64,000 nt of DNA from an uncultured Peptococcaceae bacterium (GCA_964372025.1 CAYJPF010000001.1:21696-85695), one strand, 5' to 3'. Shown: positions 30,147-59,681, numbered from the stretch's first letter. A program made the numbers and translations. The notes: generated by a model from the letters alone, not told the origin.

Positions 30147-30211
30147 GCTATTAAAAAACGATTGTCAATACAAAAATGAAAAATAAATAAAAAATATTTT
30201 TAAAAAAGTAT

Positions 30212-42615: not shown

Positions 42616-42897
42616 TTACACCTTATTTTTACTAATTACTAAATTATAGTAACTATCTTCAGCAGGAATCCATAATTCCTTGCTATCATTTATGAAGGCT
42701 CTAACGTCCTTCTCTTTTATACTATAGCAACTCATATCGCTATAACTAGCATCATCAGATACTATATTTACAAGCTCTAAAGCCTTTTCAAGTTCTTTAA
42801 AGCCTACTTGATAGCTGTCATCTTCAGCTATCATATTTAGTTTTACATTAAATATATTATCTAATATATTTAATTGTAATTGTAATTTTAAATCCAT
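42616..42897 (-). CDS. hypothetical protein
   Basis: 93-aa ORF whose start overlaps the upstream stop. Confidence 0.35.
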   Translation of the reverse strand: MDLKLQLQLNILDNIFNVKLNMIAEDDSYQVGFKELEKALELVNIVSDDASYSDMSCYSIKEKDVRAFINDSKELWIPAEDSYYNLVISKNKV

Positions 42898-43337: not shown

Positions 43338-43676
43338 TTTTCTACCTCCGTATGTTGGAACATTGCAATTCCAACGTTTTTAATTTTAACTTGTATATAG
43401 AATATCACGATTAAAAACATAAGTCAATAGCTTTTTTAAAATTTTTTAATTTATTTTAAAAATATCTTTTATATCCTCCGCATCCTCCGCATTTTATGTA
43501 AAATTTACTAAAATTTTACATAAAATAAAAACATATCCTTATGGTAAAATTTACCATATCACACCATCCTCCGCATCAAAGATAGCTTTGGTAAATTTTA
43601 CCATAAGGAGTAAAATTTACCAATTAAATAATTTTTGGTAAAATTTACCAATTCTACCAAAAATAAATTTTCTGAA

Positions 43677-43829
43677 AATTCAGAATTGTCAGAATATTTG
43701 AAAAATTCAGAATATTTCAATATTTCAGAATCGTTGCAATATTCAGAATATTCAGAATACACAAAGTTTACAGAAAATTCAGAATTGTCTGATAATTCAC
43801 AATATTCACAATATTCACAATATTCAGTT
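43677..43829. repeat. tandem array of 17 x 9-bp repeats (consensus NATTCAGAA)
   Basis: Perfect 9-bp register across 153 bp, immediately followed by two copies of the palindrome TGTTTCACGTGAAACA (43834, 43871). Confidence 0.8.
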
Positions 43830-43981
43830 ATAATGTTTCACGTGAAACACTCCTATAATATTTTAAAAAATGTTTCACGTGAAACACTGTGTAATGGTAA
43901 AATTTACCATTATAATCCTATATGTCAACATCTACCATATTTACTAAATTTTACCATATTTAACATAAAAAAGAAAAAGAG

Positions 43982-44176
43982 CTATATAGCTCTTAATCTT
44001 TTCATAATAGGTTTATGATAATTTGATTTATACCATAATCCCATTCTTAGAGCCTCTGCAAGCTCTGCATTGCCATAACAATGCCACTCTGTTAAGGCTT
44101 GACTAGCACTTGCTAGCCATAAGAGCTTTTTATTGAAGCTCTTTTTATTTAATTTTATTGTATTTTTTCTTCTCAT
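43982..44176 (-). CDS. hypothetical protein
   Basis: 64-aa ORF with RBS AGGAGGATG, third gene of a small operon. Terminator hairpin AGAGCTATATAGCTCT follows. Confidence 0.4.
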   Translation of the reverse strand: MRRKNTIKLNKKSFNKKLLWLASASQALTEWHCYGNAELAEALRMGLWYKSNYHKPIMKRLRAI

Positions 44177-44188
44177 TTTTTCATCCTC

Positions 44189-44422
44189 CTATTGTACTCT
44201 TATTATCTCATTTAAATTTATTTTTCTACCATGTGATATAAAGTATATATCACCATTGCTTTTATATCTGAGCTCAGCTCTTGCTTTCCTTGATACTGTA
44301 TCTCCTGAAACATATTGATATGTAATATAATTATCATCTATATCAATAACTCCAAGCCCTCCAGTATTGCTTAAATGCATCGTCCCTATATAATTATATT
44401 TTTTATACTTTATTGTTTTCAT
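44189..44422 (-). CDS. hypothetical protein
   Basis: 77-aa ORF with RBS TAGGAGGTA. Confidence 0.45.
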   Translation of the reverse strand: MKTIKYKKYNYIGTMHLSNTGGLGVIDIDDNYITYQYVSGDTVSRKARAELRYKSNGDIYFISHGRKINLNEIIRVQ

Positions 44423-44433
44423 CTTTATACCTC

Positions 44434-44562
44434 CTAATATATAGTAAACATTTTACACGTTTTACTATTCTCATAAAGCTTTATACATAAAGCTTCACAT
44501 ATGAAATTACCTTCTCTTGTCTCTGTGCAATAAGCACAGTCTAAACAACCTATACTATACAT
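44434..44562 (-). CDS. Cys-rich 42-aa peptide (not in the ORF track)
   Basis: MYSIGCLDCAYCTETREGNFICEALCIKLYENSKTCKMFTIY with RBS GGAGAGGT. It is preceded by a TTGCAA-17-TATAAT promoter and a TTGCGAGGGTCGCAA hairpin/operator in the leader. Confidence 0.35.
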   Translation of the reverse strand: MYSIGCLDCAYCTETREGNFICEALCIKLYENSKTCKMFTIY

Positions 44563-44900
44563 TCTTACCTCTCCTATCTGTTGCGACCCTCGCAACCCTT
44601 GAAATACTAACGTTTTATTTAACGTCTTGACTTATTATAGCATATCTAAAATAGCATTGCAAGCTTTTTTTAAAAAATTTTTAAACTTTTTTAAATTTAT
44701 TTTTTATACCACGATTTATATTATATATCAGAATTTTCTGAAAATTCAAAACATTTGCACAACTTCCAATCCATACACTTGGTAAAATTTACCAATCCTC
44801 CGCATCCTCCGCCATAAATGCTTTATGGTAAAATTTACTATTTAAACCATATATTTTAAAATAAATAAATATGGTAAATTTTACCATAAAGCATTTTTTG

Positions 44901-44999
44901 TTTTCAGAAATTTCAGAATTGTCAGAAAATTCAGAATTTACAAAAATTTCAGAATTGTTAGAATTGTCAGAATATTTAAAAAATTCAGAATATTCTTAC
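44901..44999. repeat. tandem array of 11 x 9-bp repeats (NTTTCAGAA family)
   Basis: Same repeat family and register as the 43.7-kb array. It ends in TGTTTCACGTGAAACA at 45004. Confidence 0.75.
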
Positions 45000-45117
45000 T
45001 ATATGTTTCACGTGAAACACCCTTATATTCTCACACTCTCGCATTGCCTACCTATGGTAAAATTTACCATAAAAATTTCATAAAAAAGAGATGGCAATTT
45101 TTACCATCTCTTATATT

Positions 45118-45251
45118 TCTTATATCATTGATTCACATATGCTTCCAATAATTGGTATTCCAAATAATACCATAAATGTTAGAAATGTCGCCATCCCTCC
45201 GTCCATTTCAGATTTCTTATTACTTCTTTTATATCTTATTGGTTTGCTCAT
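45118..45251 (-). CDS. hypothetical small membrane protein (not in the ORF track)
   Basis: About 43-aa ORF with strong RBS AAGGAGGTGG and a TAATG coupling to the upstream gene. One TM helix (FLTFMVLFGIPIIG). Confidence 0.35.
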
Positions 45252-45421
45252 TATTTCCACCTCCTTAAAGCTTCTTCTCTATCTAATTCGCTCATGATGA
45301 GTTCCTCTTCAGTTATCATCATGTTTTTTAAAACTTGTTTTCTCTCTCTGTCTAGCTCTCTGAACCTCTTTTTTAAATCGCTCTCACTCCATTTTTTAGT
45401 TTTTTTAATTTCTTTACTCAT
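45251..45421 (-). CDS. hypothetical small basic coiled-coil protein
   Basis: Start reassigned to MSKEIKKTKK (RBS AGAGAGGTAAA). The 5'UTR carries the hairpin GTTGAGATATTCGAATCTCAAC. Confidence 0.4.
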   Translation of the reverse strand: MSKEIKKTKKWSESDLKKRFRELDRERKQVLKNMMITEEELIMSELDREEALRRWK

Positions 45422-45718
45422 TTTTTTACCTCTCTTTTTTCTGTTGAGATATTCGAATCTCAACGTTTCTTTGTTTTAACCTACCTATATATTATCACAC
45501 CTTTATATATATGTCAACACTTTTTTTAAATTTATTTTTTATTTTTTTAATGTTGTAAAATTCTAAATTTTCTGAAAATTTAGAAAATTCGATCAACTCC
45601 AATCGCTCTACTTGGTAAAATTTACCATAACTTGCATCTCTGATATTTAGGTAAAATTTACCAATACCATTCCAATAAAAAATGGGAATATTTTACAATT
45701 CCCATTTTATACCATATT

Positions 45719-46288
45719 TTACAGATTTACATAATCATATATATTTTTTATTAAATCACTTCCAAATATTCCCATACATTTTTCATGTGTTTTTTTCATA
45801 TCTTGGTAAGCTCCTATTCCTCTCTTATATTGCTTTACATTTTCAGTATATCCAAATTCCTCAATAAACATATCTTCGTTATTATATTCTATAATGTTTG
45901 AGTCTGTCAATATGCACCATATGCAATCAAATAATAGTTTAATTCTATCAAATTTAAGGTCTCTTTTATTGTCTCTTACGTTTATTCCACTACCTGTATT
46001 ATATTTAAATTCATGTCCATTTATAATAAATAAATGTCTATTATGTCCCCATTTTTCGCCATTCTCATCATTATCAAAGTAGCCTATATTAATATATTTA
46101 ATTGTATCTAACTTAGAAAATATCTCATAAAATTTCTTTTCACTATCTATATAATCTTTATAATATTCGTATAAATTTACTATACATTCTCTAGCTTCAT
46201 CTTGAAGCTCTTCGCACCAGTTAGCAAAATCACTTTTTCTGTTCCATTCCCAATTTTTCATAGTGTTCTCATAAGTTTCAATTCTCAT
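45719..46288 (-). CDS. hypothetical protein
   Basis: 189-aa ORF with the cassette promoter TTGACA-17-TATTCT, leader AAGTTAAAGTTAA, a 5'UTR hairpin and RBS AGAGAGGT. Confidence 0.45.
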   Translation of the reverse strand: MRIETYENTMKNWEWNRKSDFANWCEELQDEARECIVNLYEYYKDYIDSEKKFYEIFSKLDTIKYINIGYFDNDENGEKWGHNRHLFIINGHEFKYNTGSGINVRDNKRDLKFDRIKLLFDCIWCILTDSNIIEYNNEDMFIEEFGYTENVKQYKRGIGAYQDMKKTHEKCMGIFGSDLIKNIYDYVNL

Positions 46289-46551
46289 TTTTTACCTCTC
46301 TTCTGTGCAAACTCTGTGTTTGCAACGTTTTAACTTTAACTTGTATATAGAATATCATATCTTGACCCATATGTCAATACTTTTTTTAATGTTGTAAAAT
46401 TCTAAATTTTCTGAAAATTCAGAAAATTCGATCAATTAAAAAATATAAATATGGTAAAATTTACCAATCCTCCGCACCCTCCGCCATATGGTAAAATTTA
46501 CTAAAAAAGGAAATATATATAATTGGTAAATTTTACCATATGGCGGAGGAA

Positions 46552-46803
46552 ATTGTCTGAATTGTCAAACAATTCAGAACTGTCGAAATTTTCAGAATCT
46601 TTTGAATTGTCAGACAATTCAAAATTGTCAGAATATTTCCAATATTCTCAATTATTATAATTGACTGAATTTTCAGACAATTCAGAATATTCCCAATATT
46701 CTTAATTGCCCATATACACCAAATATTCTGAATATTCTTAATTGACCGACTTTTCTGAATTGTCAGAATATTTGCAATATTTTTAATTATTATAATATTC
46801 TTA
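46552..46803. repeat. tandem array of 28 x 9-bp repeats (consensus ATTNTCAGA)
   Basis: 252 bp in perfect 9-bp register, ending in TGTTTCACGTGAAACA at 46809. Confidence 0.8.
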
Positions 46804-46838
46804 CTATATGTTTCACGTGAAACAAAATATTGCAAGTG

Positions 46839-47291
46839 TTATTTAACACTTACAATATTTTCCATTTTTACTGTTATTACACTTAATTCACTGCTATTAG
46901 AAAATTCACTTTTTAAGCACAATATTTCAGCTTCAGCCTTTGTAATCTCAACACCATCTTTATAATATGTTGTCGTCGCTTTACTTTTAGGGCTTGTTGT
47001 CACTCTTAAATATAAGTTTTCTTTATGTTCTATTATATATGGAAAGTGCTTCCACTGTCCCCACGGTAGAGCTTGAACTATTGCTTTTCCATCTGCTCCT
47101 ACTCCGTTTCTTTCTTTAGTGTCTTTCATATTAGCATAATCTACACCAAATCTACAAGATGTCATAATTGTTATTTTCTCAACCTTATTGTCTATTCCTT
47201 TTCTTGTCTTAAGTTGCTTATTCCATTTTACTGTTGTAAAAGCTCCTTTTTTTAAACTCTCTACTTGTTTTTTAACTTCTCCATAAATCAT
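46839..47291 (-). CDS. hypothetical protein
   Basis: Start reassigned to MIYGEVKK (RBS GAGAGGTAACA). The ORF-track N-terminal extension ..NYKLKLRI.. is a translation of the conserved leader. Confidence 0.45.
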   Translation of the reverse strand: MIYGEVKKQVESLKKGAFTTVKWNKQLKTRKGIDNKVEKITIMTSCRFGVDYANMKDTKERNGVGADGKAIVQALPWGQWKHFPYIIEHKENLYLRVTTSPKSKATTTYYKDGVEITKAEAEILCLKSEFSNSSELSVITVKMENIVSVK

Positions 47292-47522
47292 ATTGTTACC
47301 TCTCTTTTTAATTCTTAACTTTAACTTATAATTCATTATAGCACATATAAAAGCATCTGTCAATACTTTTTTTAAAAAATTTTTAAATTTATTTAAAAAA
47401 TATATTATGTAAAATTTACCAAATTTTTACAGTAAAATAAATATGGTAAAATTTACCTTATGTGCATCATTCTTCTCTATGGTAAAATTTACCACAACAA
47501 AAAAAAAAAAAAAAAGAAGAGC

Positions 47523-47747
47523 TTAAAGCTCTTCTAAATCATCAAATCCATTCCATACGTCCTCAAGCACTATTTCATTATATTCATTTATTATGATGTG
47601 TGGTGCTTCATCTCCATAATATTCATGTTCTAATAAAAATACTTTGCCATATTCTTTATAATCCATCTCGTCTACCACATACCACGTCCCCTTGTGTCCC
47701 TCTACTCTGATATTGTCACTCTTTGCAGTAATTTTCATATTGCTCAT
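47523..47747 (-). CDS. hypothetical small acidic protein
   Basis: 74-aa ORF with cassette promoter and leader. A strong terminator (hairpin plus T17) follows. Confidence 0.45.
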   Translation of the reverse strand: MSNMKITAKSDNIRVEGHKGTWYVVDEMDYKEYGKVFLLEHEYYGDEAPHIIINEYNEIVLEDVWNGFDDLEEL

Positions 47748-47791
47748 TTTGTTACCTCTCTTATTTATTATTTAACTTTAACTTATAATTT

Positions 47792-47820
47792 ATTATACCA
47801 TATGTATTTTAATCTGTCAA
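47792..47820 (-). promoter_or_regulatory. representative cassette promoter (TTGACA-17-TATAAT)
   Basis: -35 at 47820-47815 and -10 at 47797-47792 on the minus strand, followed by leader AAGTTAAAGTTAA (47784-47772) and an RBS. The same layout recurs at least 15 times between 43.4 and 59.4 kb. Confidence 0.55.
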
Positions 47821-47974
47821 TAGTTTTTTCAAAATAATTTCAGAAAAATTTCAGAAATAATAATGGTAAAATTTACCTGATGAAAATTTCAGAAGTGCGA
47901 ACAAGCTAGGTAAAATTTACCATAAAAAATTCAGAATAAAAAATGGGAATATTTTACAATTCCCATTTTTTATA

Positions 47975-48241
47975 TTATCTTATTTTTCTATCTAGCACTA
48001 GCACACAATTTTTCTTAAGCTCTGGTGCATACTGACTTTGAGATATATATAATATTGTATTAGGATATTCCAATATTATATTTTTGTCCTCATCTGTCAA
48101 TGGTCTACTTATTTCAAACATTGTTCCATATATTTTCTTTCCATCTCTTTTTATATGTGTTCTGTAAAAATTATTATATGCATTGTTATTGCAGTCTCTT
48201 AATAATTTATAAACTCCATAATCATCTAATTTCTTTCTCAT
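47975..48241 (-). CDS. hypothetical protein
   Basis: Start reassigned to MRKKLDD (RBS GAGAGGTAAA). Confidence 0.4.
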   Translation of the reverse strand: MRKKLDDYGVYKLLRDCNNNAYNNFYRTHIKRDGKKIYGTMFEISRPLTDEDKNIILEYPNTILYISQSQYAPELKKNCVLVLDRKIR

Positions 48242-48314
48242 TTTATTTACCTCTCTTTTATTTAACTTTAACTTATATATAGAGTATATCACATACATTT
48301 TATATTGTCAAGCA

Positions 48315-48914
48315 TTATTTTAATTTAAATTTATTTAATTTGTCTTTAGCTATTTTAAATTCATTCTCTTTTATTTTGACCTCTTCAATTGCAGATACTA
48401 ATTCTTCAACATATTTATCAATACTAGATATGTATTCATAATCTTTATAATTGGCATTTACAAACTTTTTATTTTCAAAGTCGATAAACACATTATCTTC
48501 AATAAAAGCATCTCCATTTTCAAGTTCAATACTTCCCATATATAAACTCCCATAATAAATTGAAAATCCATCATCAGACAAGTTTATTTTAAAGTAATGT
48601 AAGAAAAATTCTATTTCACTTTTCAACATATGTAAATTATATTCGTTAGCACGTTTGCAATAATATTTCTCTATTACCTTTATAATATCATTATTGCAAT
48701 ATTTTAAAATAAAATATACTATATTATTTTTAATAACTAAATTCTTCTTTTTTTGAGATAGAGGCATAGTAGAGTCACATCCTCCATACTCCATATATGT
48801 ATCTTCCAAATATACTAAATTGCTTCTTAAAGTCTCCAAATCTTTTATTTCTTGTCGAGTTCTATCCATAAAATCGTTTATGCTTCTTTCTAAAATGTTA
48901 AATTCACTATTCAT
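48315..48914 (-). CDS. hypothetical protein
   Basis: 199-aa ORF with RBS GAGAGGTAAGA and cassette promoter. Confidence 0.45.
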   Translation of the reverse strand: MNSEFNILERSINDFMDRTRQEIKDLETLRSNLVYLEDTYMEYGGCDSTMPLSQKKKNLVIKNNIVYFILKYCNNDIIKVIEKYYCKRANEYNLHMLKSEIEFFLHYFKINLSDDGFSIYYGSLYMGSIELENGDAFIEDNVFIDFENKKFVNANYKDYEYISSIDKYVEELVSAIEEVKIKENEFKIAKDKLNKFKLK

Positions 48915-49098
48915 ATTCTTACCTCTCTTTTTATTTAGTAATAACTTTTATCTTACTTATATATTACCACACATATATAATAAAGTCAAGCATTATTTTT
49001 AAAATTAAAATGTTTAAATATTCAGACAATTCAAAATATTCAAACAGATCATACACTAGGTAAAATTTACCATATATACATAAAAAGAGAAAAAGAGC

Positions 49099-49347
49099 CT
49101 ATAGCTCTTCTTCGTCCTCTTCTTCGTCCTCACACTTATTATATAATTCCATAATATCAGCTAGTTCAAACCACACAAAGTCGTTTATCTCTGTTTCTGT
49201 GCATGCCTCTTTGCACATATATTCCTCTATTATTTCTTGAGCCTCTTGTTCTCTGTCTTGAAATCTTATTTCTTCGGCTACATCTTGCCCACCACTCCAA
49301 AATTCAAAACTATCAAATTTAAATTCATATTCTTCTCTTACTATCAT
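49099..49347 (-). CDS. hypothetical highly acidic protein (DNA-mimic-like composition)
   Basis: 82 aa ending EDEEEDEEEL, with cassette promoter. Confidence 0.4.
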   Translation of the reverse strand: MIVREEYEFKFDSFEFWSGGQDVAEEIRFQDREQEAQEIIEEYMCKEACTETEINDFVWFELADIMELYNKCEDEEEDEEEL

Positions 49348-49437
49348 TTTATACCTCTCCTTTGGTTATCTAACTTTAACTTATAATTCATTATAACATA
49401 TACATATTACTTTGTCAATAGTTATTTTAAAAATATT

Positions 49438-49650
49438 TTAATAAATTGAAACCCCTTCATAATAATATAATAGTTTATTATTTATACTGAAATTATCATT
49501 TGATTCTTTACTATGCACATATACACTGCCACACATATCAAACCTCTTAACTTTATATCCTAGCATTTTCAATATTGCCATTCCCATTTCTTCAGGTGAA
49601 TATCCACAATTTTTTGCTAATCTCTCTAAATTTTTTGTTGTTATATTCAT
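49438..49650 (-). CDS. hypothetical protein
   Basis: 70-aa ORF with cassette promoter. Confidence 0.4.
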   Translation of the reverse strand: MNITTKNLERLAKNCGYSPEEMGMAILKMLGYKVKRFDMCGSVYVHSKESNDNFSINNKLLYYYEGVSIY

Positions 49651-49874
49651 CTCATACCTCTCTTTTCATTATTTAACTTTAACTTATATATATAATACCA
49701 TACATTTATATATTTGTCAATAGTTATTTTAAAATAAATCAAAGATATTCTCCTTCCACATACTAGGTAAAATTTACCATATCCCATAATAAAAAAAAGA
49801 ACACACATTCGTGTGTCCTATATTTTACTAGAGACAATGAGAGAGGTAATCGCATTGCTCTAGCCTATTTAGCA

Positions 49875-50144
49875 TTATTTTACAAAATTTTTATATACTC
49901 TTGCAAACTCATTAGCTGATAATCTAGCTTCTTTTCTGCCACCATCAATCCAGTTTAAATGTTTGCCTGTAGTAACTCCCCATATATTTTGATGTACATA
50001 TAATTGCCCACCAACTTTAAATGCTACCAATGTTTTGTATGAGAAATAAAATTCTCTTCCTTTTGCATCTGTGAAAACCAATGTGTGGCTTCCATAATTA
50101 TCACTTGAGTAATTTCCATAGTTTCTATAATTTACATTCATCAT
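49875..50144 (-). CDS. hypothetical protein
   Basis: 89-aa ORF with cassette promoter. Confidence 0.4.
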   Translation of the reverse strand: MMNVNYRNYGNYSSDNYGSHTLVFTDAKGREFYFSYKTLVAFKVGGQLYVHQNIWGVTTGKHLNWIDGGRKEARLSANEFARVYKNFVK

Positions 50145-50247
50145 ATCTTTTTCTCCTTTATTTGTTAACCTCTCAACAACTTATAATTCATTATACCACA
50201 TATATTTTACTTTGTCAATAGTTTTTTTAAAATATTTTTAATTTATT

Positions 50248-50562
50248 TTACCATCCTATATATATTTTAGGATATACAATAATTTCCATGTTCTCATCAA
50301 ATTCAGCTCTTTTAATCATCATAACTTCAAATCCTTCATCTGTCAATACATCTATAATTGAATAGTGGCAAGTATCACTGTCTTTTATATGCGAGAATTC
50401 ATATTCTATATATCCTATATTCTCACCATGTATGTTTGCAGTTATTTTATTTATGATATCGCTTATAGTCATATCAATTATAGTCTTACGTTTCATCATA
50501 GAGGGTGAATTAGCCTCTATATCTTTTATTAGGTTATATATATCTCCTTTTGCTTTTGCCAT
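50248..50562 (-). CDS. hypothetical protein
   Basis: 104-aa ORF with cassette promoter. Confidence 0.4.
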   Translation of the reverse strand: MAKAKGDIYNLIKDIEANSPSMMKRKTIIDMTISDIINKITANIHGENIGYIEYEFSHIKDSDTCHYSIIDVLTDEGFEVMMIKRAEFDENMEIIVYPKIYIGW

Positions 50563-50729
50563 CGTTATTACCTCTCTTTCTTAACTTTAACTTACATATA
50601 TAATATCATACATTTATATATTTGTCAATAGTTATTTTAAAATAAATTAAAAATATTTTTCCTCTATCTACTAGGTAAAATTTACCATATATAATATAAA
50701 AAGAGAGAGCATATTGCTCTCCCATATTT

Positions 50730-51293
50730 TTACATATTTCTTTCATTCTCAATGATAGCATCCATTGCTTCTCTATATCCTTTTGACCAATCTTCTGTGT
50801 CAAGTATATCCAGAGAATCTCCATATTTTTTAGTATATAATTTCCTTTGCAACATATAATCCACATATGAATAATGAGCTTCTTGAGTAACCGATTCGAC
50901 GTGTCTCATTATATTTGTTTCTAGTGCATTCAATACTGCAAAAGCTTTTTCTTTATCAATTGTCAAAAATATACTATCTTCTGCCATATATTCGCAATTT
51001 TCTACAATAACATCAAAATAAGATATATCATTTTCGTCTTTTAAATCATACTCTTCCATTGCTTTTTCCTGTATTTCGTGTTTAGTAATAAACATTGTTC
51101 TCATTACTACATCATACAATATTTCAGTCTCAAGTGTTTCTATATTTTCAGAATTACATAATGGGCAAAATTCTTTTTTGCTATTCCTACTTACAAATAC
51201 ATCTTTTAAATATCTCCCACAATCTCTGCATCTTATTACTTCTTTGTCCTCATCATAGAACTCATGTTTTATTAAATCAATATTATTTGTCAT
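50730..51293 (-). CDS. hypothetical zinc-ribbon protein
   Basis: CRDCGRYL...CPLC motifs, with cassette promoter. Confidence 0.45.
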   Translation of the reverse strand: MTNNIDLIKHEFYDEDKEVIRCRDCGRYLKDVFVSRNSKKEFCPLCNSENIETLETEILYDVVMRTMFITKHEIQEKAMEEYDLKDENDISYFDVIVENCEYMAEDSIFLTIDKEKAFAVLNALETNIMRHVESVTQEAHYSYVDYMLQRKLYTKKYGDSLDILDTEDWSKGYREAMDAIIENERNM

Positions 51294-51374
51294 TTTACCT
51301 CTCCTTATTTTAATTGCTTAACTTTAACTTATAATTCATTATAGCATATATATTTTACTTTGTCAATAGATATT

Positions 51375-51974
51375 TTAAAATAATTTGCCATCTTCATAAA
51401 ATTCATATTCGCTACAGTCACACATATCTTGCATTTCTTCTTCATCAATATTATGTAGAAAGTCATATCCATCTTTCTCATATTTTTTCTCTAAATCTTC
51501 CATATAGTCCATTGCACTGTTAAAGAATTTTACCAATACATCTTCATTGATATTTTTTATATCATTATATTCTAATTCATATATCACATTTTTTACCCAT
51601 TCATCACTTTTTTTATGTATAAATTTTACACTATAAGCATAACGAGTGTTGGCAGATAACATAATTGCATCATTATCATCATATTTAGCATAGAATTTAA
51701 TCGCTCTTTTCTCTTTATCTGTCATATCTAATTTATCAACAATATCACATACATCTAATGTGCCATAAATATTAAGTCCATCGCCTTGACAATATCCTAG
51801 CGAATATTGAGTATGCAATTCAGAGTTAGGAAAATCTTCTTTTAAATCACACTTTATATTATCACTAAATATGTCATTTCTTATTTCGCAATCTAAAAAA
51901 TCTCGTTTCACTCTCTCCTTTGCTTCTTCAGATAATTCTTCATACTTGTAAATTTTTATCTCTTCAATTCTCAT
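51375..51974 (-). CDS. hypothetical protein
   Basis: Start reassigned to MRIEEIKIY (RBS GAGAGAGGTATAAA). Confidence 0.45.
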   Translation of the reverse strand: MRIEEIKIYKYEELSEEAKERVKRDFLDCEIRNDIFSDNIKCDLKEDFPNSELHTQYSLGYCQGDGLNIYGTLDVCDIVDKLDMTDKEKRAIKFYAKYDDNDAIMLSANTRYAYSVKFIHKKSDEWVKNVIYELEYNDIKNINEDVLVKFFNSAMDYMEDLEKKYEKDGYDFLHNIDEEEMQDMCDCSEYEFYEDGKLF

Positions 51975-52076
51975 TTTATACCTCTCTCTTTCAACTCTTA
52001 ACTTTAACTTATAATTCATTATAGCATATATTTTTTACTTTGTCAATAGTTATTTTAAAATAAATTAAAAATATTT

Positions 52077-52352
52077 TTAGTGATATGTATATTGCAATTC
52101 ATAATCATTTAATATTTCACTTATTTCTTTATCAGTGAATTCTCTATCAGAGTTTTCTAGTAGTGACCTTGCACAGTCCTCACAGAATTTTCCACTCATA
52201 TCTAAATATTCACAGTCATCTCCATCATAATATATAGAATCTTCAAATAATACACTATCGCATCTATCACACACCTCTATACAATATGGGTCTTTACTTC
52301 CACAGTTTCTGCATGTCTCACAGTCTAAGCAGTCATTTCTTTGCACTAACAT
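52077..52352 (-). CDS. hypothetical Cys-rich protein
   Basis: 91 aa with 10 Cys (CLDCETCRNCG...). Confidence 0.4.
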   Translation of the reverse strand: MLVQRNDCLDCETCRNCGSKDPYCIEVCDRCDSVLFEDSIYYDGDDCEYLDMSGKFCEDCARSLLENSDREFTDKEISEILNDYELQYTYH

Positions 52353-52624
52353 ATTTTTTCTCCTTCCTTATATTCCTTAAGATATTTGATACTCATTCTC
52401 AAGTGATATATTCTATTATCATGTTCTTCTTCAGCAGATAATTCATCTATCCAAGATTGCAGAGCATCTATAGTTTCTTCTATTCCTTCTACATCCATCA
52501 AATATCCACTCATATCACAGTATGGACAGTGATTTTCTCCTATCTCATCATCTCTTCCATCATATTTAACGAGTATTTCACCCTCATCCATTGTGTTTTC
52601 ACACCAGTTACATTTAATTCTCAT
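52346..52624 (-). CDS. hypothetical zinc-ribbon protein
   Basis: CNWCEN...CPYCD, with cassette promoter. Confidence 0.4.
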   Translation of the reverse strand: MRIKCNWCENTMDEGEILVKYDGRDDEIGENHCPYCDMSGYLMDVEGIEETIDALQSWIDELSAEEEHDNRIYHLRMSIKYLKEYKEGEKIC

Positions 52625-53347
52625 ATTATTTATTCCTCTCTTTCAATATAAATAACTTTAACTTACATATATAATATCATAGTTAAAGCTATTTGTCAAT
52701 AGGTATTTTAAAATATTTATTATTGGAAAAATTTGGTAGGATCGGTCATATTGGTAAAATTTACCTTTATAATACAATAGAGTGCAAAAGGTTGCAAAAT
52801 CGCTTTAGCGGTTTTAGCAAACCTAGGAATTGACGTACAAAATGAGTAGAAAATATTTATATTTTCTACATTTTGTAGTCAAGGAGTGGAGCTCAAGAGC
52901 CTTATGGAATATGAATATTTCATAAGGTATAAGGCTTAACAGCCCTATTCTGCCAAATAGAGAAAGTGTAAACACTTTCTTGCTATTTGGTGCGAATATT
53001 CCCCCCTTTGCCAAAACTGCTGAAGCAGTTTCGTCAACCATATTCAACTGGTTTCAATATTTCTACTTAATTTGTATTGAAAATTAGAATTTTATAAATG
53101 CATAAAATTTAAAAACATATGATTATGACAAAGAAATATTTTGATTTAGAAAATTGTTATTGTTGAGAATTCCAAAATACAAAATTCGAAAAATCAAAAA
53201 TAAATGTTGAAATTTCAACGCTTAAACCCCCTCGCTCTAAATATAATGTACTAAAAAATTAGAATTTTTAGCGTAAGCAAAACACGAGGGAGAAGCGTGA
53301 GCAAAAAACGGACAGCGACTGCTCTTGATTGTTGTTTAAATTTGTAT

Positions 53348-54709
53348 TTATTCTTCAATATTTTCATCTAAATCCTCATACATATTTTCATATGATTGAG
53401 ATTCAAGTATAACTTCTTCATTTAACCAACTATGTAGCAAATTCCTCATTCTCTTAGATGGAATATATACATTTATATTATTGTATTCTCTAATAGCACT
53501 TCTAAATATAAATTGCAACATTTCAGATAGAGCGAATAAATCATAATTGATTTTTACTTTATGAAATAAAAAAAATTGTTTTACATAAGGATTAGGAAAT
53601 CTGTTAGCGAAATAAACCACACAAGTCCTATCCTTATACATATTAGTTCCTCTTGTATTTAGAGCGACAAATCCTTTTGTATATCCTTTCCCACTATATA
53701 ACTTTTTATATTCCTTATATACAGTCCATATTACTTTATTAGAATGAGATTTAGAAATTTTTTGAACATAATTCTCTATATTATTTTTAATTAACTTAGT
53801 CACCTTATCATTCTTAGACCAAGTATCAAACCATGTTTTTGAGAGAGCTGTCTCAAATTCTCCTATATCATTCAATTTGCTATTTTCATGAATTGAAATA
53901 AGTGGCTTATATCTTTTTATATCATATTTTTGAGGAACATCTGTTAGGCAATATCTCCCACCTTCTTTTTTTACATACAGATAATTATATTCTACATTAT
54001 GAAAATCAAAATAATATTTCTGAATTTGGGCATCAAACATATATGTCAATATATATACACGTCTAAAGGCTTTAAATATTGAAACTGGAAAATTCCATGC
54101 GATTGTAGAATTATTATTTCCATAAGCATACAGTGATTCTATTTCACACATTTTTTTGTATTTATTATATTCTCCACTATATGATTTATCTGTCCACACT
54201 ATCAATCCATCTTTTTCTATTTTTGCGTGTTTAGAAAATATATTTTGTCTGTCTGATTTACTTATAGCTGTTGTTCCCACTACATCTGCAACTTCATCCA
54301 TAACCAATATATATCGATTTAAAAATGCAAGCTGTACCATTTCTGCATCGAAATATTGGAATAAAGCATGTGTAGTTACAATATTCTTGCCTTGATTTAT
54401 TAGTTCTTTTATATTCTCTGTCTTAGTAGATACTGCATCTGATGGTTCAATAAAATGTTTGTCTTTGCAACTCTCTTTGATTCTTTTGACCTCATCAAGA
54501 TATGGGGTAACATACATATACCTATATACATCATCTGACATTTTGTCCTCATTTATAAAGTTTATCAAAGAACTTGTTTTCCCTTCCCCCATAGGAGCAT
54601 CAACTACATTAACTTTATAATGTTTGTAATTATCACTTTCAACAAACATATCTACTAATTCATCAAATTCTTCATTGGTTATTATTTTACTCATTATAAT
54701 GTCTCCCAT
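53348..54709 (-). CDS. superfamily-2 helicase-like P-loop ATPase
   Basis: Walker A DAPMGEGKTS, Walker B LVMDEVAD (DExx) and a motif VI-like QFIFRSAIRE. Confidence 0.4.
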   Translation of the reverse strand: MGDIIMSKIITNEEFDELVDMFVESDNYKHYKVNVVDAPMGEGKTSSLINFINEDKMSDDVYRYMYVTPYLDEVKRIKESCKDKHFIEPSDAVSTKTENIKELINQGKNIVTTHALFQYFDAEMVQLAFLNRYILVMDEVADVVGTTAISKSDRQNIFSKHAKIEKDGLIVWTDKSYSGEYNKYKKMCEIESLYAYGNNNSTIAWNFPVSIFKAFRRVYILTYMFDAQIQKYYFDFHNVEYNYLYVKKEGGRYCLTDVPQKYDIKRYKPLISIHENSKLNDIGEFETALSKTWFDTWSKNDKVTKLIKNNIENYVQKISKSHSNKVIWTVYKEYKKLYSGKGYTKGFVALNTRGTNMYKDRTCVVYFANRFPNPYVKQFFLFHKVKINYDLFALSEMLQFIFRSAIREYNNINVYIPSKRMRNLLHSWLNEEVILESQSYENMYEDLDENIEE

Positions 54710-55350
54710 ACTTTACATTCTTTGTTAATTTTCTCATAACATTCTTTCCCATATCCTCTTCTAATACTCTCACTATCTGTTAATCTCCTACCACAGTTTC
54801 CACATTTAGCAACATATGTCATTGTGATATTTCTACTTAGCACATTTCTTGATAATTGCGTAAGAGCTGATAATAGTAATCCTATTTCATAATCACTCTT
54901 TTCATAATTTCCTGATTTTCCTTTAGAAAATCCAAAAGAAGAATTGTCATTTACAAATAAACAACCTCCGTATAAAGGGTCGTCAAAAGGCTCTTTTTCA
55001 TCTAACAATGTAACAAAATACATATTCCTAGTTGGCTCAGGTTTGGTTAGGAAATATCTTATTTCTCTTGTCTGTTCCTTATCTTGCTGTATTATAAATT
55101 CAGATTTTGTTGAAAGTATAAACTCTAGCATATCTGCATATGTATCAACATTTACGTTTGGATATGTAGGTTCATCATTCAAAGGTGGGTGCATATCATA
55201 TCTTGGTTTACTTTCAGATAAATTTAAAACTTCATATTGTGGTGAAAGTAAATTTAAATTATGTAGCTCTCCTATATTAGTATCTGCTAGGTCTGAAATC
55301 TCAGCATTTGATTGAGATACCACATCTATTATTTCAATTGTTGTATTCAT
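54694..55350 (-). CDS. hypothetical protein with C-terminal zinc ribbon (partner of the helicase-like gene)
   Basis: 218 aa overlapping the helicase-like gene start by 16 nt. CGNCGRRL...C motifs. Confidence 0.4.
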   Translation of the reverse strand: MNTTIEIIDVVSQSNAEISDLADTNIGELHNLNLLSPQYEVLNLSESKPRYDMHPPLNDEPTYPNVNVDTYADMLEFILSTKSEFIIQQDKEQTREIRYFLTKPEPTRNMYFVTLLDEKEPFDDPLYGGCLFVNDNSSFGFSKGKSGNYEKSDYEIGLLLSALTQLSRNVLSRNITMTYVAKCGNCGRRLTDSESIRRGYGKECYEKINKECKVWETL

Positions 55351-55476
55351 ATTGTTCTCCTTTGTTTTAATTTATTATTTATGTATTCATTATATCATAT
55401 TTTATTGGTGGTGTCAAGCATTTTATTTAGCTTGATCTTGGTAAAATTTACCATATGAATATAAAAAAGAGAGGCA

Positions 55477-55977
55477 TTAAAATGCCTCTTTAATCGCCTC
55501 TATAAGTGGCTCTAAACCTGTGGAATATCTCCATATTCCTGAATTGTCTGAATATTCTGCATTTCCATTATATTCACATTCTTCTATAAAGAACTCTGTG
55601 ATTACATAATGCTTATGATATGGGCAGTACCAATATGTTGACCTTAATTGTGCTACCACCTCTACTGCTAAACTATATGTGGTATATGACCCCATTATTT
55701 CCCCACCATCTGTTTCAGTAGTTATCCCTGTTTTGATAGAGTGTCTCTCCTTGAATGGAATTTCTACAGTAGACTTCTTTATTTCATATGTTTTGCATTT
55801 GAATATATAATTGTCCTCTGCAACTTCTGCTCCATAGCATTCATCTATGTAAGTCTTTAAAAGCTCCATAGCTTGCTCTATATCTTCTGCTTCTACTATT
55901 TGAGAATCCCATTGAGACTCCAATCCATTATTTAATTTAAATTGAATTCTAAATGCGTTTACTTGTTTATGTTTCAT
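55477..55977 (-). CDS. hypothetical protein
   Basis: 166-aa ORF with cassette promoter. A terminator hairpin AGAGGCATTTTAATGCCTCT plus a T-run follows. Confidence 0.45.
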   Translation of the reverse strand: MKHKQVNAFRIQFKLNNGLESQWDSQIVEAEDIEQAMELLKTYIDECYGAEVAEDNYIFKCKTYEIKKSTVEIPFKERHSIKTGITTETDGGEIMGSYTTYSLAVEVVAQLRSTYWYCPYHKHYVITEFFIEECEYNGNAEYSDNSGIWRYSTGLEPLIEAIKEAF

Positions 55978-56073
55978 ATTACACCTCTCTCTTTCACTTA
56001 TTTAACTTTAACTTATAATTTATTATAGCACAGGTTGAATAGATTGTCAATAGTTTTTTAGAAATTTTTTATT

Positions 56074-56475
56074 TTAATTCAAATATTCATTCAACATATT
56101 CAATATTTCTGTCTCATATTGCATAGTTGGAATTACAATCTCTTCCATTGTTACAGTTAGTAAACTCCCATATTCAGCTCCAACCAGTGCTTGTTCATAT
56201 GGTGTAGAGATAGGCATTGATGCTATTTCATATATTTTGTTTTCACCATAGTCCATATAGTCAAGAGTTGAAGTAAGATTGTTGTTCACTTCATCACGTA
56301 TAGTGTTCAATAGTTCATCAGCCTCAATTCTTAGGTCTTTCTGCACTTGGACTTCTCTCTGTAGATTTCCTATGGTGATATCTTTCCCCATAGGGTTTGT
56401 AATAGCGATTGTTATTATTGCTGATACCATTACTGATACTAATATAATTGCGATTGTTTTAATTTGTTTTTTCAT
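56074..56475 (-). CDS. hypothetical membrane-anchored protein
   Basis: N-terminal TM helix IAIILVSVMVSAIITIAIT. Confidence 0.4.
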   Translation of the reverse strand: MKKQIKTIAIILVSVMVSAIITIAITNPMGKDITIGNLQREVQVQKDLRIEADELLNTIRDEVNNNLTSTLDYMDYGENKIYEIASMPISTPYEQALVGAEYGSLLTVTMEEIVIPTMQYETEILNMLNEYLN

Positions 56476-56521
56476 GTTTATTCCTCCTTATTTGTTGTTT
56501 AGTTTTAACTTATAATTTAAT

Positions 56522-56749
56522 TTAAAATAAAGGTTCATCAGGGAACATATATGTTCCATTGCTTTTAAATGATTGATTATGGAAATCTATTCTTTTTGCC
56601 ATTTCTTTAATTGTTTTAACTGGCTCAATAGTGATAGGATTTTTCATTTGTTTTATTTTAGATAATAAATTATCATTATCACTACATCTCAATCCATTTG
56701 CAAAATATGTTCCATTATCCTCATGTACTACCACATAGTTAAATTTCAT
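56522..56749 (-). CDS. hypothetical protein
   Basis: Start reassigned to MKFNYVVVHED (RBS AGGAGGAATAAAT). Confidence 0.4.
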   Translation of the reverse strand: MKFNYVVVHEDNGTYFANGLRCSDNDNLLSKIKQMKNPITIEPVKTIKEMAKRIDFHNQSFKSNGTYMFPDEPLF

Positions 56750-56953
56750 ATTTATTCCTCCTTGTTTGCTGTTTAACTTTAACTTATAATTTATTATAGC
56801 ACAGGTCAGAATATATGTCAAGCATTTATTTTATAAATTTATAATTTATTTTTCAAATATCTATATGGTAAAATTTACTAAGATCTGTAATGAAAAAGAC
56901 ACCCATTACAGGTGTCTCTCTCGAAAGGAATAATAACAACTTATGTAAACAGA

Positions 56954-57877
56954 TTAGCTTGCTAATCTGAAATACTCTTGAGCTTTGCCAACCCACTCAT
57001 TACCTTTAACAAGATTAAAGAAACGATTCTCACTGGCTGTAGATGTTTGTCTTAATGGCTCACTATGACTAGCAAGGTCAGTTACTGCCATATATGCTCC
57101 ATATTGTGTTCCTTTGAATGGTTGAATATCTACTTTATTATTGTATACAGATATTATCTCATTCCTAAGTTTAGCTACATTCTCTTCTTTGCGAGAGCTT
57201 GCATCTGTTGGAGTAGGGAATAAGAATTCAGAGAAATTGACTATATTGTCTAATTTAGTATCTGCTAATTTCTCCATCTCATTCTCAAACTTACTGATGT
57301 ATTTGTTAGCTTTAAGAATGCTATCGTGAGCTAGTTGCAGTCTGTTCATAACTTGAGCAGTATGTTTAATTGACCATGAGAAGTTGTCGTGCTTCATCAT
57401 ATATGTCATTCCATTGGCACACCATTGACGCAACATAACTACATTTAGTTTGATACTGCCTGAACCATCAAATGAATTCTCAAAGTATATATATGGGGTG
57501 ATATCATCACCTAGAATATTGATGTCTTCTAGCTCTCCCAGTATCCATACTTTCTTAGAATCTGCTGATGCGTTAGCCATATGAAACTTCATACCCTCTT
57601 CAACCATACCATCTATAAATGAGAATGCTTCTTGGTTGTTGATTATATGGTATCTGCTACCAACTATACCCAACACTTGTTCTGTATCAGAACGCATATT
57701 TGCGATGTAGTTAGGAACTTTATTCCCATTTACTATAACATCCTTTTGCTCTACTGTGAAGTTTAGGTTTGAGATATCTAATACCTCTTGTAAAGATTTT
57801 GCTTCTTTACAGTCAACTCCTAGTCCTCTCCACGGTGTGTTAACATTTACGTTTTTAAATTTAGTTACATTATTCAT
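56954..57877 (-). CDS. DUF932-family (phage/plasmid-like) protein
   Basis: ENSFDGSGSIKLNVVMLRQWCANG matches the DUF932 signature as recalled (NS.DGS.S ... R..C.NG). 307 aa is typical for the family. Confidence 0.45.
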   Translation of the reverse strand: MNNVTKFKNVNVNTPWRGLGVDCKEAKSLQEVLDISNLNFTVEQKDVIVNGNKVPNYIANMRSDTEQVLGIVGSRYHIINNQEAFSFIDGMVEEGMKFHMANASADSKKVWILGELEDINILGDDITPYIYFENSFDGSGSIKLNVVMLRQWCANGMTYMMKHDNFSWSIKHTAQVMNRLQLAHDSILKANKYISKFENEMEKLADTKLDNIVNFSEFLFPTPTDASSRKEENVAKLRNEIISVYNNKVDIQPFKGTQYGAYMAVTDLASHSEPLRQTSTASENRFFNLVKGNEWVGKAQEYFRLAS

Positions 57878-57965
57878 ATTTCTACCTCTCCCTTTCAGTT
57901 ACTTTACTTTAACTTATAATTTATTATAGCATAGATTTTCATGATTGTCAAGCATTTATTTTATT

Positions 57966-58358
57966 TTAATTTAAAATATTTTTACCTTCAATAGATAAGA
58001 GTCTGTCAAACTCTTTGACACAGTGAGTTAGCACTTCATCAAATAATGTATAGAAATATGTAAATGCATTAGCAAGCTCCATATTGCCATCTTCTACCAT
58101 TGTATTATATGTTTGCTCTGCATCTGACAACAGGTCTTCTATATCGTTTGCATTTATTTCACCATATCCATTTGATTGAGTATGCTCTTTGAATATACTG
58201 TATAGATTACGTTGATATTCATTTATAACATGTAATGAATGAACTAGCTCTATATTATCTTCTCTTGTATTTACGATGTCTCCTACATTTGGAATTGTAG
58301 GCTCTTTGCTTTCTGATATTATCTCTTCCCACGATTTTATTATTCTATTTGTTTGCAT
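57966..58358 (-). CDS. hypothetical protein
   Basis: 130-aa ORF with cassette promoter. Confidence 0.4.
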   Translation of the reverse strand: MQTNRIIKSWEEIISESKEPTIPNVGDIVNTREDNIELVHSLHVINEYQRNLYSIFKEHTQSNGYGEINANDIEDLLSDAEQTYNTMVEDGNMELANAFTYFYTLFDEVLTHCVKEFDRLLSIEGKNILN

Positions 58359-58690
58359 ATTTGTTCCTCCTTATTTGTTGTTAACTTTAACTTGTGATAT
58401 AAGTATAGCACAGGTTTAATAATATGTCAATACTTTTTTTATTTTAATTTAAAATATTTTTCATTTAGAAAAATGGATCATATTGGGTAAATTTTACCAA
58501 TAGGGTATAAAGACAAAACCACCAGTAATAATACTGATGGCTTTATCTTAAGCTTAATCTTCATAATGGTTTGGAGTGGACACTAATCACTCCTTCATGC
58601 AAGATACGGAGGTGTAAGGAGAAAGGTGTATGAAAACCTTTGTAAGTTAAAGTGTGCCTTGCATGAAGCAATGACTAGCATTGCAATGGG

Positions 58691-59329
58691 TTATTTTTTC
58701 TTATTCACTTCTTTTATAGTTAAGTTATTGTCTTTGCATCTAGCACAATTATATAGCATATTAAATCCATTTAATAAGTTTCTCACTGTTTCACTACGTT
58801 TGTAGTAATATGTATTTATGCCACAAGATGGACAAGATACGATATATTTTGGATTTGTTGATTTAGAGCTATTATATTTTCTAAATAATATAGACATTGC
58901 TCTACCCATCAGTCTTTCTATTTTGTAATTTGTTTGAGATGTTACTTGTTTTGCATAGGCAGTCCACACTTCACCATGATGTTCTTTGGATTTATCTTTC
59001 TCATAAGTTATATTGTGGAGCATCTCATGTATGATAGTATTTGTAAGGTCATCTAGGTTGTGAGTATCTATACAACAGTTTAAATAATTGATACCTATTA
59101 CTATTTCACGAGTTTCTGTAGTACAATGTGCTACAGATTTTTTCATCCTATGGCTTATTTTTATAGAGTAATATTTGCTTGGGTTCATTAGTATGTTGCA
59201 TTTAATTAGTGTAAGAAATGCCTCTGTGTATGCATTGATTATTATTTGCTTTTGTTTTTTAGTTAGTTTTGGGTCTGATTGTATTTGTTGTGTCAGACGT
59301 TCTACATTTGTTGTTTGTGTTTGTGTCAT
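58691..59329 (-). CDS. SprT-like zinc metallopeptidase
   Basis: IIHEMLHN (HExxH) followed by HHGEVW (SprT HGxxW) and a C-terminal zinc ribbon (CPSCG...CARC). Confidence 0.6.
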   Translation of the reverse strand: MTQTQTTNVERLTQQIQSDPKLTKKQKQIIINAYTEAFLTLIKCNILMNPSKYYSIKISHRMKKSVAHCTTETREIVIGINYLNCCIDTHNLDDLTNTIIHEMLHNITYEKDKSKEHHGEVWTAYAKQVTSQTNYKIERLMGRAMSILFRKYNSSKSTNPKYIVSCPSCGINTYYYKRSETVRNLLNGFNMLYNCARCKDNNLTIKEVNKKK

Positions 59330-59681
59330 ATTGTTCTCCTCTCTCTACGTTGTTTTAACTTGTTGTTTTAACTTATGATATAAGTATAGCATAGGAGGAG
59401 GTGTTTGTCAAGGGGTTTTTAAAATTTTTTTATTTTTATTTTTGAGTGGGTTTGTCAAGTAAGGGAGCTTGATGTATTTGAGGGGAAAGGGGGAGTGGGA
59501 AAGATTGACATCGTTGGTAAATTTTGGGAGTTAAGAGATTAAGCGATACAAAGTATACATCTAACCTTTAGTATCCAAAAGATACCATTCCCAAATACCA
59601 ACATTTACATTCCATTTAACCCCATTCTAACCCCTACTCACCCTCAAACCATCAATCCCCATCCCAAATCCCAACTCACCA

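Follow-up and report, generated by a model that had tools for sequence, protein, structure and literature searches.

A minus-strand array of 21 paralogous promoter-leader modules in a novel SPbeta-related Bacillota phage, with a partial likeness to the early stem-loop cassettes of T4-type phages

The stretch of DNA analysed here, called the window over its full length of 64,000 nucleotides, was taken from an assembly assigned to an uncultured Peptococcaceae bacterium (GCA_964372025.1, CAYJPF010000001.1:21696-85695) and is part of a novel Bacillota phage of roughly 140 kb. An array of repeated promoter-leader modules was observed in it in front of small genes on the minus strand, to which all statements on the array refer unless another strand is given, and the coordinates of its features are collected in Table 1. 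The array contains 21 strong sigma-A-type promoters, from 43427 to 59411 and including one of the TTGCAA type at 44662, for about 30 genes, which are arranged mostly in one- or two-gene units, so that about a third of the genes lack a promoter of their own. The initial annotation had described a recurring promoter-leader unit upstream of these genes, with near-consensus host-type promoters, a conserved start region and a ribosome-binding site (RBS), and this description was borne out, each copy of the conserved leader motif lying 6-8 nt past a TTGACA-17-TGnTAnnnT promoter. Its statement that the module precedes nearly every gene holds for the presence of the 21 promoters and goes too far for the ~30 genes, about six of the promoters (55417, 50218, 48989, 45517, 44662 and 59411) also lacking the full motif.

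Read along the minus strand, the module consists of an A/T-rich block (TTTTAAAATAAcTA), TTGACA, a 17-nt spacer ending in TGn, and TATAAT or a one-off variant, followed after 6-8 nt by AAGTTAAAGTTAA, an A-rich stretch, AGAGAGGT, a further 5-9 nt and the ATG. The leader motif is in its exact form a 13-mer composed of a tandem hexamer (AAGTTA-AAGTTA), that is, a direct repeat. On the plus strand, AACTTTAACTT (which reads AAGTTAAAGTT on the minus strand) was found in 13 exact copies between 46332 and 58393, and with at most one mismatch it gave 17 matches against 5.2 expected, a number reached in 0 of 100 shuffles. The fourteen motif positions listed in the initial annotation were all recovered within 11 nt, the one at 57905 with one mismatch, and the NYKLKL N-terminal extension that it considered an artefact is one, the TTG of the -35 hexamer having passed for an ORF start codon at two promoters, 47363 and 56821. 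Scoring for the 13-mer and for consensus covered the 20 canonical promoters, without 44662, and 11 of these carry the exact 13-mer; AAGTTAAA stands at sixteen array promoters, and a consensus scan of the minus strand of the array region returned ten perfect 12/12 promoters with TG. The motif is also missing from three strong promoters elsewhere in the window (30211 and 33883 on the plus strand, 63773 on the minus strand), and since promoters without it exist, it is not required for promoter function.

Table 1. Position of the early-gene array, its modules, terminators and repeated intergenic elements, counted from the first nucleotide of the window.
Feature	Position	Strand	Description
Early-gene array, whole	43335..59436	-	21 co-oriented promoter-leader modules, ~30 small genes
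P59411	59327..59436	-	-35 59411-59406, -10 59388-59383; leader variant AAGTTAAAACAAC tandemly duplicated; SprT-like 212-aa gene
P58430	58356..58455	-	exact 13-mer at 58381-58393; 130-aa ORFan
P57951	57875..57976	-	leader AAGTTAAAGTAAA; DUF932 307-aa gene
P56821	56747..56846	-	exact 13-mer; bicistron 75-aa + 133-aa
P56050	55975..56075	-	exact 13-mer; 166-aa ORFan
P55417	55348..55442	-	perfect promoter without leader motif; conserved DUF6011 218-aa + YonV-like 448-aa operon
P52699	52622..52724	-	leader AAGTTAAAGTTAT; pair 92-aa + 91-aa
P52046	51972..52071	-	exact 13-mer; 199-aa gene
P51366	51291..51391	-	exact 13-mer; 187-aa gene
P50628	50560..50653	-	exact 13-mer; 104-aa gene
P50218	50142..50243	-	perfect promoter, degenerate leader AAGTTGTTGAGAG; 89-aa gene
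P49720	49648..49745	-	exact 13-mer; 70-aa gene
P49418	49345..49443	-	leader AAGTTAAAGTTAG; 82-aa gene
P48989	48912..49014	-	TTGACT, leader AAGATAAAAGTTA; 199-aa gene
P48311	48239..48336	-	exact 13-mer; 88-aa gene
P47820	47745..47845	-	exact 13-mer; LPD18 74-aa gene
P47363	47289..47388	-	exact 13-mer; 150-aa gene, among the few common to L016, L067 and other loci
P46377	46286..46402	-	exact 13-mer, then leader hairpin (dG -7.6); 189-aa gene
P45517	45419..45542	-	leader AGGTTAAAACAAA + hairpin (dG -10.2); pair 56-aa + 43-aa
P44662	44560..44687	-	TTGCAA -35, hairpin leader (dG -14.5); 42-, 77- and 64-aa genes
P43427	43335..43452	-	leader AAGTTAAAATTAA + hairpin (dG -10.8); pair 146-aa + 93-aa
Terminator-like hairpin + T-run	58519..58553	-	3' of SprT-like gene
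Intrinsic terminator	56892..56922	-	3' of DUF932 gene
Intrinsic terminator	55470..55489	-	
Intrinsic terminator	50703..50723	-	
Intrinsic terminator	49798..49819	-	
Intrinsic terminator	49089..49113	-	
Intrinsic terminator, bidirectional hairpin	47936..47973	-	
Intrinsic terminator	47515..47535	-	
Intrinsic terminator	45086..45112	-	
Intrinsic terminator	43977..43994	-	
19-bp palindrome TATGGTAAATTTTACCATA (core GGTAAATTTTACC)	42123..58498	.	about 32 intergenic copies upstream of promoters
Composite unit U1	43340..43990	-	GTTTCACGTGAAAC x2, 18-unit CodY-box-like array, palindromes, GCGGAGGAT doublet, hairpin-leader promoter
Composite unit U2	44565..45125	-	U1 paralogue; exact CodY box 44732-44746
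Composite unit U3	46290..46845	-	U1/U2 paralogue; exact CodY box 46405-46419

The G+C content of the window is 26-34%, and its minus-strand block from 1 to 29.7 kb encodes a portal, a large terminase, an exonuclease and an 840-aa polymerase-like protein. The last (25483-28005, minus strand) is a YonO-type single-chain RNA polymerase (Pfam RdRP 4.6e-21; PHROG 8308), which in tblastn comparisons shares 27% identity with SPbeta yonO and 41% with the polymerase of Thomasclavelia phage TR-TP2, and which has no PDB sequence match. The portal is ~35% identical to Enterocloster phage portals, and a YonV_C-domain protein (53348-54694, minus strand) and a YopX-domain protein (39315-40040, plus strand) provide a link to SPbeta-like phages; with these affinities of portal, terminase, YonO, YonV and YopX to SPbeta-like, Thomasclavelia and Enterocloster phages, the phage is not a T4-type myovirus. 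The products of the array are nearly all ORFans, with the exception of the SprT-like, DUF932, DUF6011, LPD18 and YonV-like proteins, whose domains would fit roles in takeover or anti-defence. Wide conservation was found for the YonV-like gene (1929 matches at E<=1e-30), and its promoter at 55417 is a perfect array promoter that carries no leader motif. Proteins of the region found 100%-identity matches only in one 140,306-bp NCBI contig; a megablast search of INPHARED with the array region gave no DNA-level match and its distant mode only trivial ones, while the window yielded no tRNA genes, no Rfam match and nothing in a PDB sequence search. In SPbeta late-gene transcription is carried out by YonO (PMC5467207) and therefore, by analogy, the sigma-A-type array would be an ORFan-filled early region that depends on the host polymerase, with later genes presumably left to the phage's own YonO-type enzyme. 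A promoter function of the leader motif for this YonO-type polymerase was rejected, as the motif does not occur in the structural/late region.

The motif begins 6, 7 or 8 nt past the -10, and the base preceding it is T or C in every case; start sites follow a pyrimidine(-1)/purine(+1) rule, so that the first A of the motif is the expected start site and is taken as the predicted +1. The match to consensus per position is 0.88 for the motif (+1 to +13), 0.88 for the -10 and 0.98 for the -35, compared with 0.58 for the spacer, 0.65 for the UP region and 0.57 for positions +14 to +25. As the motif is conserved to the degree of the -10 and its surroundings less so, it is constrained itself and not merely carried along by recent duplication. 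Seventeen of the 21 leaders are 31-40 nt long with a predicted minimum free energy (MFE) of folding of ~0, the four others (46377, 45517, 44662 and 43427) measure 54-63 nt and contain an extra hairpin from about +17, and a GAGAGG-type RBS closes the leaders. The transcripts would thus open with the 13 bases AAGUUAAAGUUAA, continue in an unstructured A-rich leader of 31-40 nt and end in a GAGAGG-type Shine-Dalgarno (SD) sequence before the ATG. Most likely the 13-mer represents the fixed 5' end of the early mRNAs, and it may have been retained for setting an A start, aiding the escape of the polymerase from an over-strong promoter and keeping the leader open for ribosomes. The early promoters of coliphage T5, studied by the Bujard laboratory in the 1980s, are said to be very strong and to share a sequence downstream of +1 that affects late initiation steps; host and sequence differ from those of the array, in which the element is an exact 13-mer tandem hexamer.

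Two other functions were weighed for the 13-mer. It might act in RNA as a common 5' tag by which a phage or host nuclease, stabiliser or translation factor handles the transcripts as one class, in the way that RegB and RegA of T4 act on early messages as a class; the variable distance from the -10 combined with the fixed pyrimidine/A context, which would give every transcript an identical 5' end, and the uniform length and unstructured nature of the leaders speak for such a tag, which is nevertheless judged unlikely, given that no candidate factor was found, that Rfam returned no match and that some cassettes of the same array do without the motif. A search for an antisense RNA to the leader found no complementary copy on the transcribed strand. 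The T7 'epsilon' translational enhancer, UUAACUUUA, was discarded, being present only on the non-transcribed plus strand.

The second possibility is a DNA operator at +1 to +13, where a phage or host protein bound to the tandem repeat would shut off the whole array at polymerase takeover or in lysogeny. The motif is confined to promoters, sits at the classic roadblock position, is conserved as strongly as the -10 and is lacking in strong promoters outside the array, and SPbeta-type phages use the SPBRE element, which is repeated in about ten early promoter regions and bound by the master repressor MrpR (PMC10516654). SPBRE and the 13-mer have in common that a YonO-encoding phage repeats a short conserved element across many of its early promoter regions; they differ in sequence and in copy number, with about 32 palindromes (described below) and 13-15 leader motifs here against about 10 copies of SPBRE, and no MrpR-like protein was seen in the window. 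Repressor operators are moreover typically dyads, unlike this 6-bp direct repeat, the window proteins scanned showed no DNA-binding domain, and the abundant true palindromes nearby are better operator candidates, which is a mild argument against the 13-mer in this role. An operator is accordingly considered improbable, to about the same degree as an RNA tag, and a start-and-leader element is preferred as the reading of the 13-mer over both, the three being inseparable by sequence.

Intrinsic termination was observed for only part of the units. A G+C-rich hairpin followed by a T-run is present at 11 of the 20 junctions between units, seven junctions leave only 3-30 nt from the stop codon to the next -35 and thus no room for a terminator, and the remaining two are ambiguous. 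The claim of the initial annotation that each cassette has its own terminator is therefore overstated, and the four terminators that it gave as examples are real (47535-47515, 50723-50703, 55489-55470 and ~56922-56892). About half of the units would accordingly be insulated by intrinsic terminators and the others would read through into the next unit, each module providing very strong, immediate and independent expression of one or two small accessory genes.

Relatives of the array were obtained by a pattern scan of metagenomes, in which the module pattern identified one true relative (the contig L016), and by protein searches (L065, L066 and L067). L016, a metagenome contig of 14.4 kb, contains 21 modules of the same design under a strict TGn pattern and 23 under a looser one, with 77-91% identity to the window modules across about 40-110 bp, and only two of its ~25 proteins have homologues in the window, namely the SprT-like protein (32%) and the 150-aa protein (46%), whose genes are direct neighbours in L016 and separated by 12 kb in the window. 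L067 shows the gene order DUF932-SprT-150aa, with seven modules and 13 copies of the 19-bp palindrome of the window, in which the order is SprT-X-DUF932 and the 150-aa gene follows much further on. The DUF932 proteins of L065 and L066 are 66% identical to that of the window, and DUF932 is flanked by different cassettes in the window, L065, L066 and L067. A 132-bp promoter module is common to L065 and L066 at 81% identity, past which their coding sequences are non-homologous, and L066 possesses, relative to L065, one additional cassette of palindrome, promoter and 118-aa gene. The modules are thus kept in all four contigs, only 1-3 genes of each are common with the window and their order is different; the comparison with related genomes proposed in the initial annotation did not return a conserved syntenic block and gave the pattern predicted there, as far as distant relatives and one clean breakpoint can tell.

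Searches of wider collections gave few further loci. In IMG/VR, exact-protein look-ups and scans for close relatives yielded no match, and the strict module pattern produced only single chance matches in IMG/VR and GTDB genomes. A looser pattern, TATAATRARKTATAAGTTAAA, returned 35 IMG/VR loci, none of them related by protein; selected with the bias of the pattern itself, they indicate no more than that promoter designs of this kind are common in Bacillota phages. Several loci of Bacillota phages in IMG/VR (L030, L045, L031/L037 and L062) contain, within 6-14 kb each, 8-17 consensus promoters with the TGn extension and short A-rich leaders, and dense early promoter arrays seem to be common in gut Bacillota phages, in a sample selected by pattern. 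No promoter array was observed in the first 50 kb of Thomasclavelia phage TR-TP2, the closest isolate by its polymerase, and L087 and L088, relatives by the YonV-like gene, have few promoters on long operons and no per-gene modules. As TR-TP2 and L087 use the same promoter style in few copies on long operons, the amplification to per-gene modules is therefore a trait of the sublineage of the window.

Copies of the repeat unit within the window measure 80-136 bp and are 77-89% identical; the unit begins at the ATG, includes the UP region and reaches as far as the proximal palindrome. When only UP and spacer positions were compared, the nearest neighbour of a module was found in the same genome for 19 of 20 modules of the window and 17 of 21 of L016. 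The RBS GAGAGG occurs in 17/21 window modules and 0/21 of L016, a GTGAGG-type RBS in none of the window and 18/21 of L016, the leader AAGTTAAAGTTA in 13/21 against 1/21, and the leader AAGTTAAA[GAT][CT]AA[AG] in 1/21 against 11/21. These choices of RBS and leader, which should be functionally neutral, form genome-specific 'dialects' and point to concerted evolution; they are the expected product of gene conversion or of module spread within a genome, and would alternatively arise by co-evolution with a genome-specific binding factor, with which the genome-specific 3' half of the motif also agrees if it is an operator. A simpler account, in which the modules are conserved only as an optimised promoter and RBS and the gene differences reflect long divergence, ORFan turnover and ordinary illegitimate recombination, was also considered. 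TGn-TATAAT-AAxTTAT-AAG designs do occur in unrelated Bacillota phages and in L087, there with few promoters on long operons, and every relative found is distant (32-66% protein identity), whereas each genome has homogenised neutral choices such as its RBS flavour and the leader's 3' half, and the homology between L065 and L066 spans the 132-bp module and ends at unrelated coding sequences; this account is held to be possible and the less probable one, standing somewhat above the operator and the RNA tag.

The reading favoured overall, at a probability of roughly 0.6, is that a host-polymerase early region contains 21 paralogous modules which serve as strong independent promoters and also as homology joints for the shuffling of cassettes. 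Each module would comprise, over 80-136 bp, the UP element, a consensus -35, the 17-nt spacer, an extended TGn -10 and a pyrimidine/A start, and such long and similar direct repeats around every cassette could serve as joints at which recombination and gene conversion keep the modules of one genome alike and permit the gain, loss, replacement and reordering of cassettes, in the manner proposed for the promoter-early stem-loop (PeSL) elements of T4. How the modules are built, that they are paralogous, the dialects and the lack of synteny in the cargo are observed, and what we infer is the transcription start, the function of the 13-mer and the mediation of shuffling by the modules. Several points weigh against this reading. 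The motif is missing from the six array promoters and three other strong promoters named above, the start site is a prediction, and a repressor operator at +1 would be indistinguishable in sequence. The sole clean breakpoint lies between two short metagenomic contigs, and the collections searched hold no close relative (>66% protein identity), so that no recent insertion or deletion is mappable in the window itself. Much of this pattern could moreover arise without any special role in recombination, if promoters are under strong purifying selection and ORFans turn over fast. Integron-like cassettes, which are promoterless and accompanied by attC sites and an integrase, were rejected, as the cassettes come with promoters and a Pfam scan of 50 window proteins, a subset of the ORFs, returned no integrase.

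Further repeated elements, which are absent from the initial annotation, were observed in the intergenic modules. The 19-bp palindrome gave 61 strand matches against 2.9 expected, all sites lying between 42.1 and 58.5 kb, often in runs spaced by 36-37 or 44-47 bp and mostly in one orientation (such as 47408-47493, 46453-46537 and 43497-43649), and as a rule the proximal copy has its start 57-58 bp upstream of the -35. It is kept in L065, L066 and L067; L016 contains a different exact 18-bp palindrome, TTATTCTTTAAAGAATAA, in 15 copies located 33-100 bp upstream of promoters (such as minus-strand 1062, 1686 and 2392), which suggests that each lineage has its own boundary element. The palindromes carry no T-runs and are probably protein-binding sites; the Pfam scan of 50 window proteins showed no helix-turn-helix (HTH) or recombinase-like domain. 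In a scan for palindrome pairs, eleven copies of CGGTAAAATTTACCG at ~33-bp spacing were observed in 430 bp of non-coding sequence (2929-3375) of an unrelated jumbo contig (L080 in IMG/VR, 239,565 bp), an iteron- or centromere-like array that hints at a widespread family of binding proteins.

Three paralogous non-coding units of ~500 bp each, with 67% column identity, each contain GTTTCACGTGAAAC, an array of 10-18 units that repeat every 9 bp, three palindromes, a GCGGAGGAT doublet and a hairpin-leader promoter, and like the palindromes the CodY-box arrays within them belong to the intergenic modules; the ORF listed at 46533-46835 is probably spurious. The perfect 14-bp palindrome GTTTCACGTGAAAC was found at 43835, 43872, 45005 and 46810, four times against 0.1 expected and always at the upstream edge of the 9-bp arrays. 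These arrays, at 43666-43827, 44902-44990 and 46605-46801, are built of units that match the CodY consensus AATTTTCWGAAAATT, of which the window contains four exact 15-mer copies (43666, 44732, 45566 and 46405) and, with at most two mismatches, 22 boxes against 3.3 expected, 20 of the 22 falling within 42.4-49.0 kb. The CodY-like sites form chains of 2-4 at exact 9-bp steps, with five 9+9 triples against 0 in 50 shuffles, and CodY operators are known as overlapping sites shifted by 9 bp with a 6-nt overlap (PMC10415144). The four exact 15-mers and the degenerate copies in exact 9-bp steps of the three non-coding units agree with such operators, and the 10-18-unit arrays and the phage setting differ from the 2-3 overlapping sites reported in the same source. 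CodY-box arrays were not seen in the contigs of the relatives. Three tandem TGTGAATAT units at 43800-43830 on the minus strand match 8 of the 9 positions of TGTGNATAA, the complement of the DnaA box, and the composite units could alternatively be origin-like. The most novel possibility concerns the CodY-box arrays and palindromes and not the promoters themselves: the arrays could serve the adjacent hairpin-leader promoters as a nutritional switch, or be a decoy by which the host's global regulator CodY is titrated once the phage DNA replicates, and the ~32 palindromes may mark every cassette boundary for a phage protein, making the palindrome-promoter-leader units true mobile regulatory cassettes with site-directed rather than merely homologous exchange. 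This combined proposal is regarded as improbable.

The closest described system is formed by the PeSL cassettes of T4-type phages, in which a terminator, an A/T-rich region, a promoter, an SD sequence and an ATG follow one another (Comeau et al. 2014, PMC4122927; Arbiol et al. 2010, PMC2839356), and the array is not a member of it by lineage. In both, an A/T-rich region leads into a near-consensus early promoter of the sigma-70 type, an SD sequence and an ATG, in the array with a stem-loop terminator in front at part of the junctions, and the cassettes are repeated between small ORFans in a hyperplastic region in which relatives appear to differ by gain, loss and replacement next to the elements. 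The array differs in belonging to a Bacillota, SPbeta-related phage with a YonO polymerase instead of a T4-like myovirus, in that only about half of its modules have a terminator, and in its extra conserved 13-nt transcribed leader, genome-specific RBS and 19-bp non-terminator palindromes. The likeness to T4 PeSLs drawn in the initial annotation is thus partly supported, its layout, ORFan region and cassette differences between relatives being recovered and its terminators present at 11 of 20 junctions in a phage that is not T4-like, and the array appears as a PeSL-like design in a Gram-positive phage lineage. The SPO1 host-takeover module (Stewart et al. 1998; summarised in PMC6873191) has some 25 small early genes, grouped into short operons that have strong sigma-A promoters and RBS. 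With the array it shares the clustering of such genes, strongly promoted and with strong RBS, in a Gram-positive phage; no sequence homology was detected between the two, the array is denser in promoters (21 for ~30 genes) and its promoters are paralogous. Further marks of this type of module are a place in the terminal redundancy and products that shut off host functions; the window does not reach the genome ends, and the array's proteins are nearly all ORFans. The SPO1 module is the nearest Gram-positive analogue in presumed function.

Some features outside the modules were recorded in addition. The large terminase (981 aa, 15612-18557, minus strand) contains a LAGLIDADG/Hom_end insert at about residues 300-390 that looks like an intein or a homing-endonuclease insertion. 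A paralogous gene pair with 49% identity (59897-60274 and 61467-61853, minus strand) lies within the 12-gene operon of the motif-less promoter 63773. The divergent intergenic strand switch at 29760-30200 harbors dense A/T-rich repeats of 11 and 22 bp (29925-30114) and a C-rich tract, CCACCCGTCCCCACCCCCACCCTC, and may be an origin or a regulatory hub. Tandem repeats were found as CTTTTCG x4.4 in an intergenic position (21332-21362), as a 15-bp unit x5.2 with 98% match inside a gene (9527-9604), and as TTATTG x6.3 at the 5' end of the 146-aa gene (43294-43331).

To our knowledge, descriptions of the mobile regulatory cassette model have been confined to T4-type phages that infect Gram-negative bacteria, and if the favoured reading is true, this model of phage genome plasticity reaches large gut/Bacillota phages related to SPbeta. 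The 21 graded sigma-A promoters with one 5' leader offer a natural set for the study of promoter escape, start-site choice and the fate of early mRNA in Gram-positive hosts, and some 30 early ORFans are singled out by their cassettes as candidates for a part in host takeover or anti-defence. If the CodY-box arrays are functional, they would represent a new route by which a phage reads or disarms a global regulator of its host.

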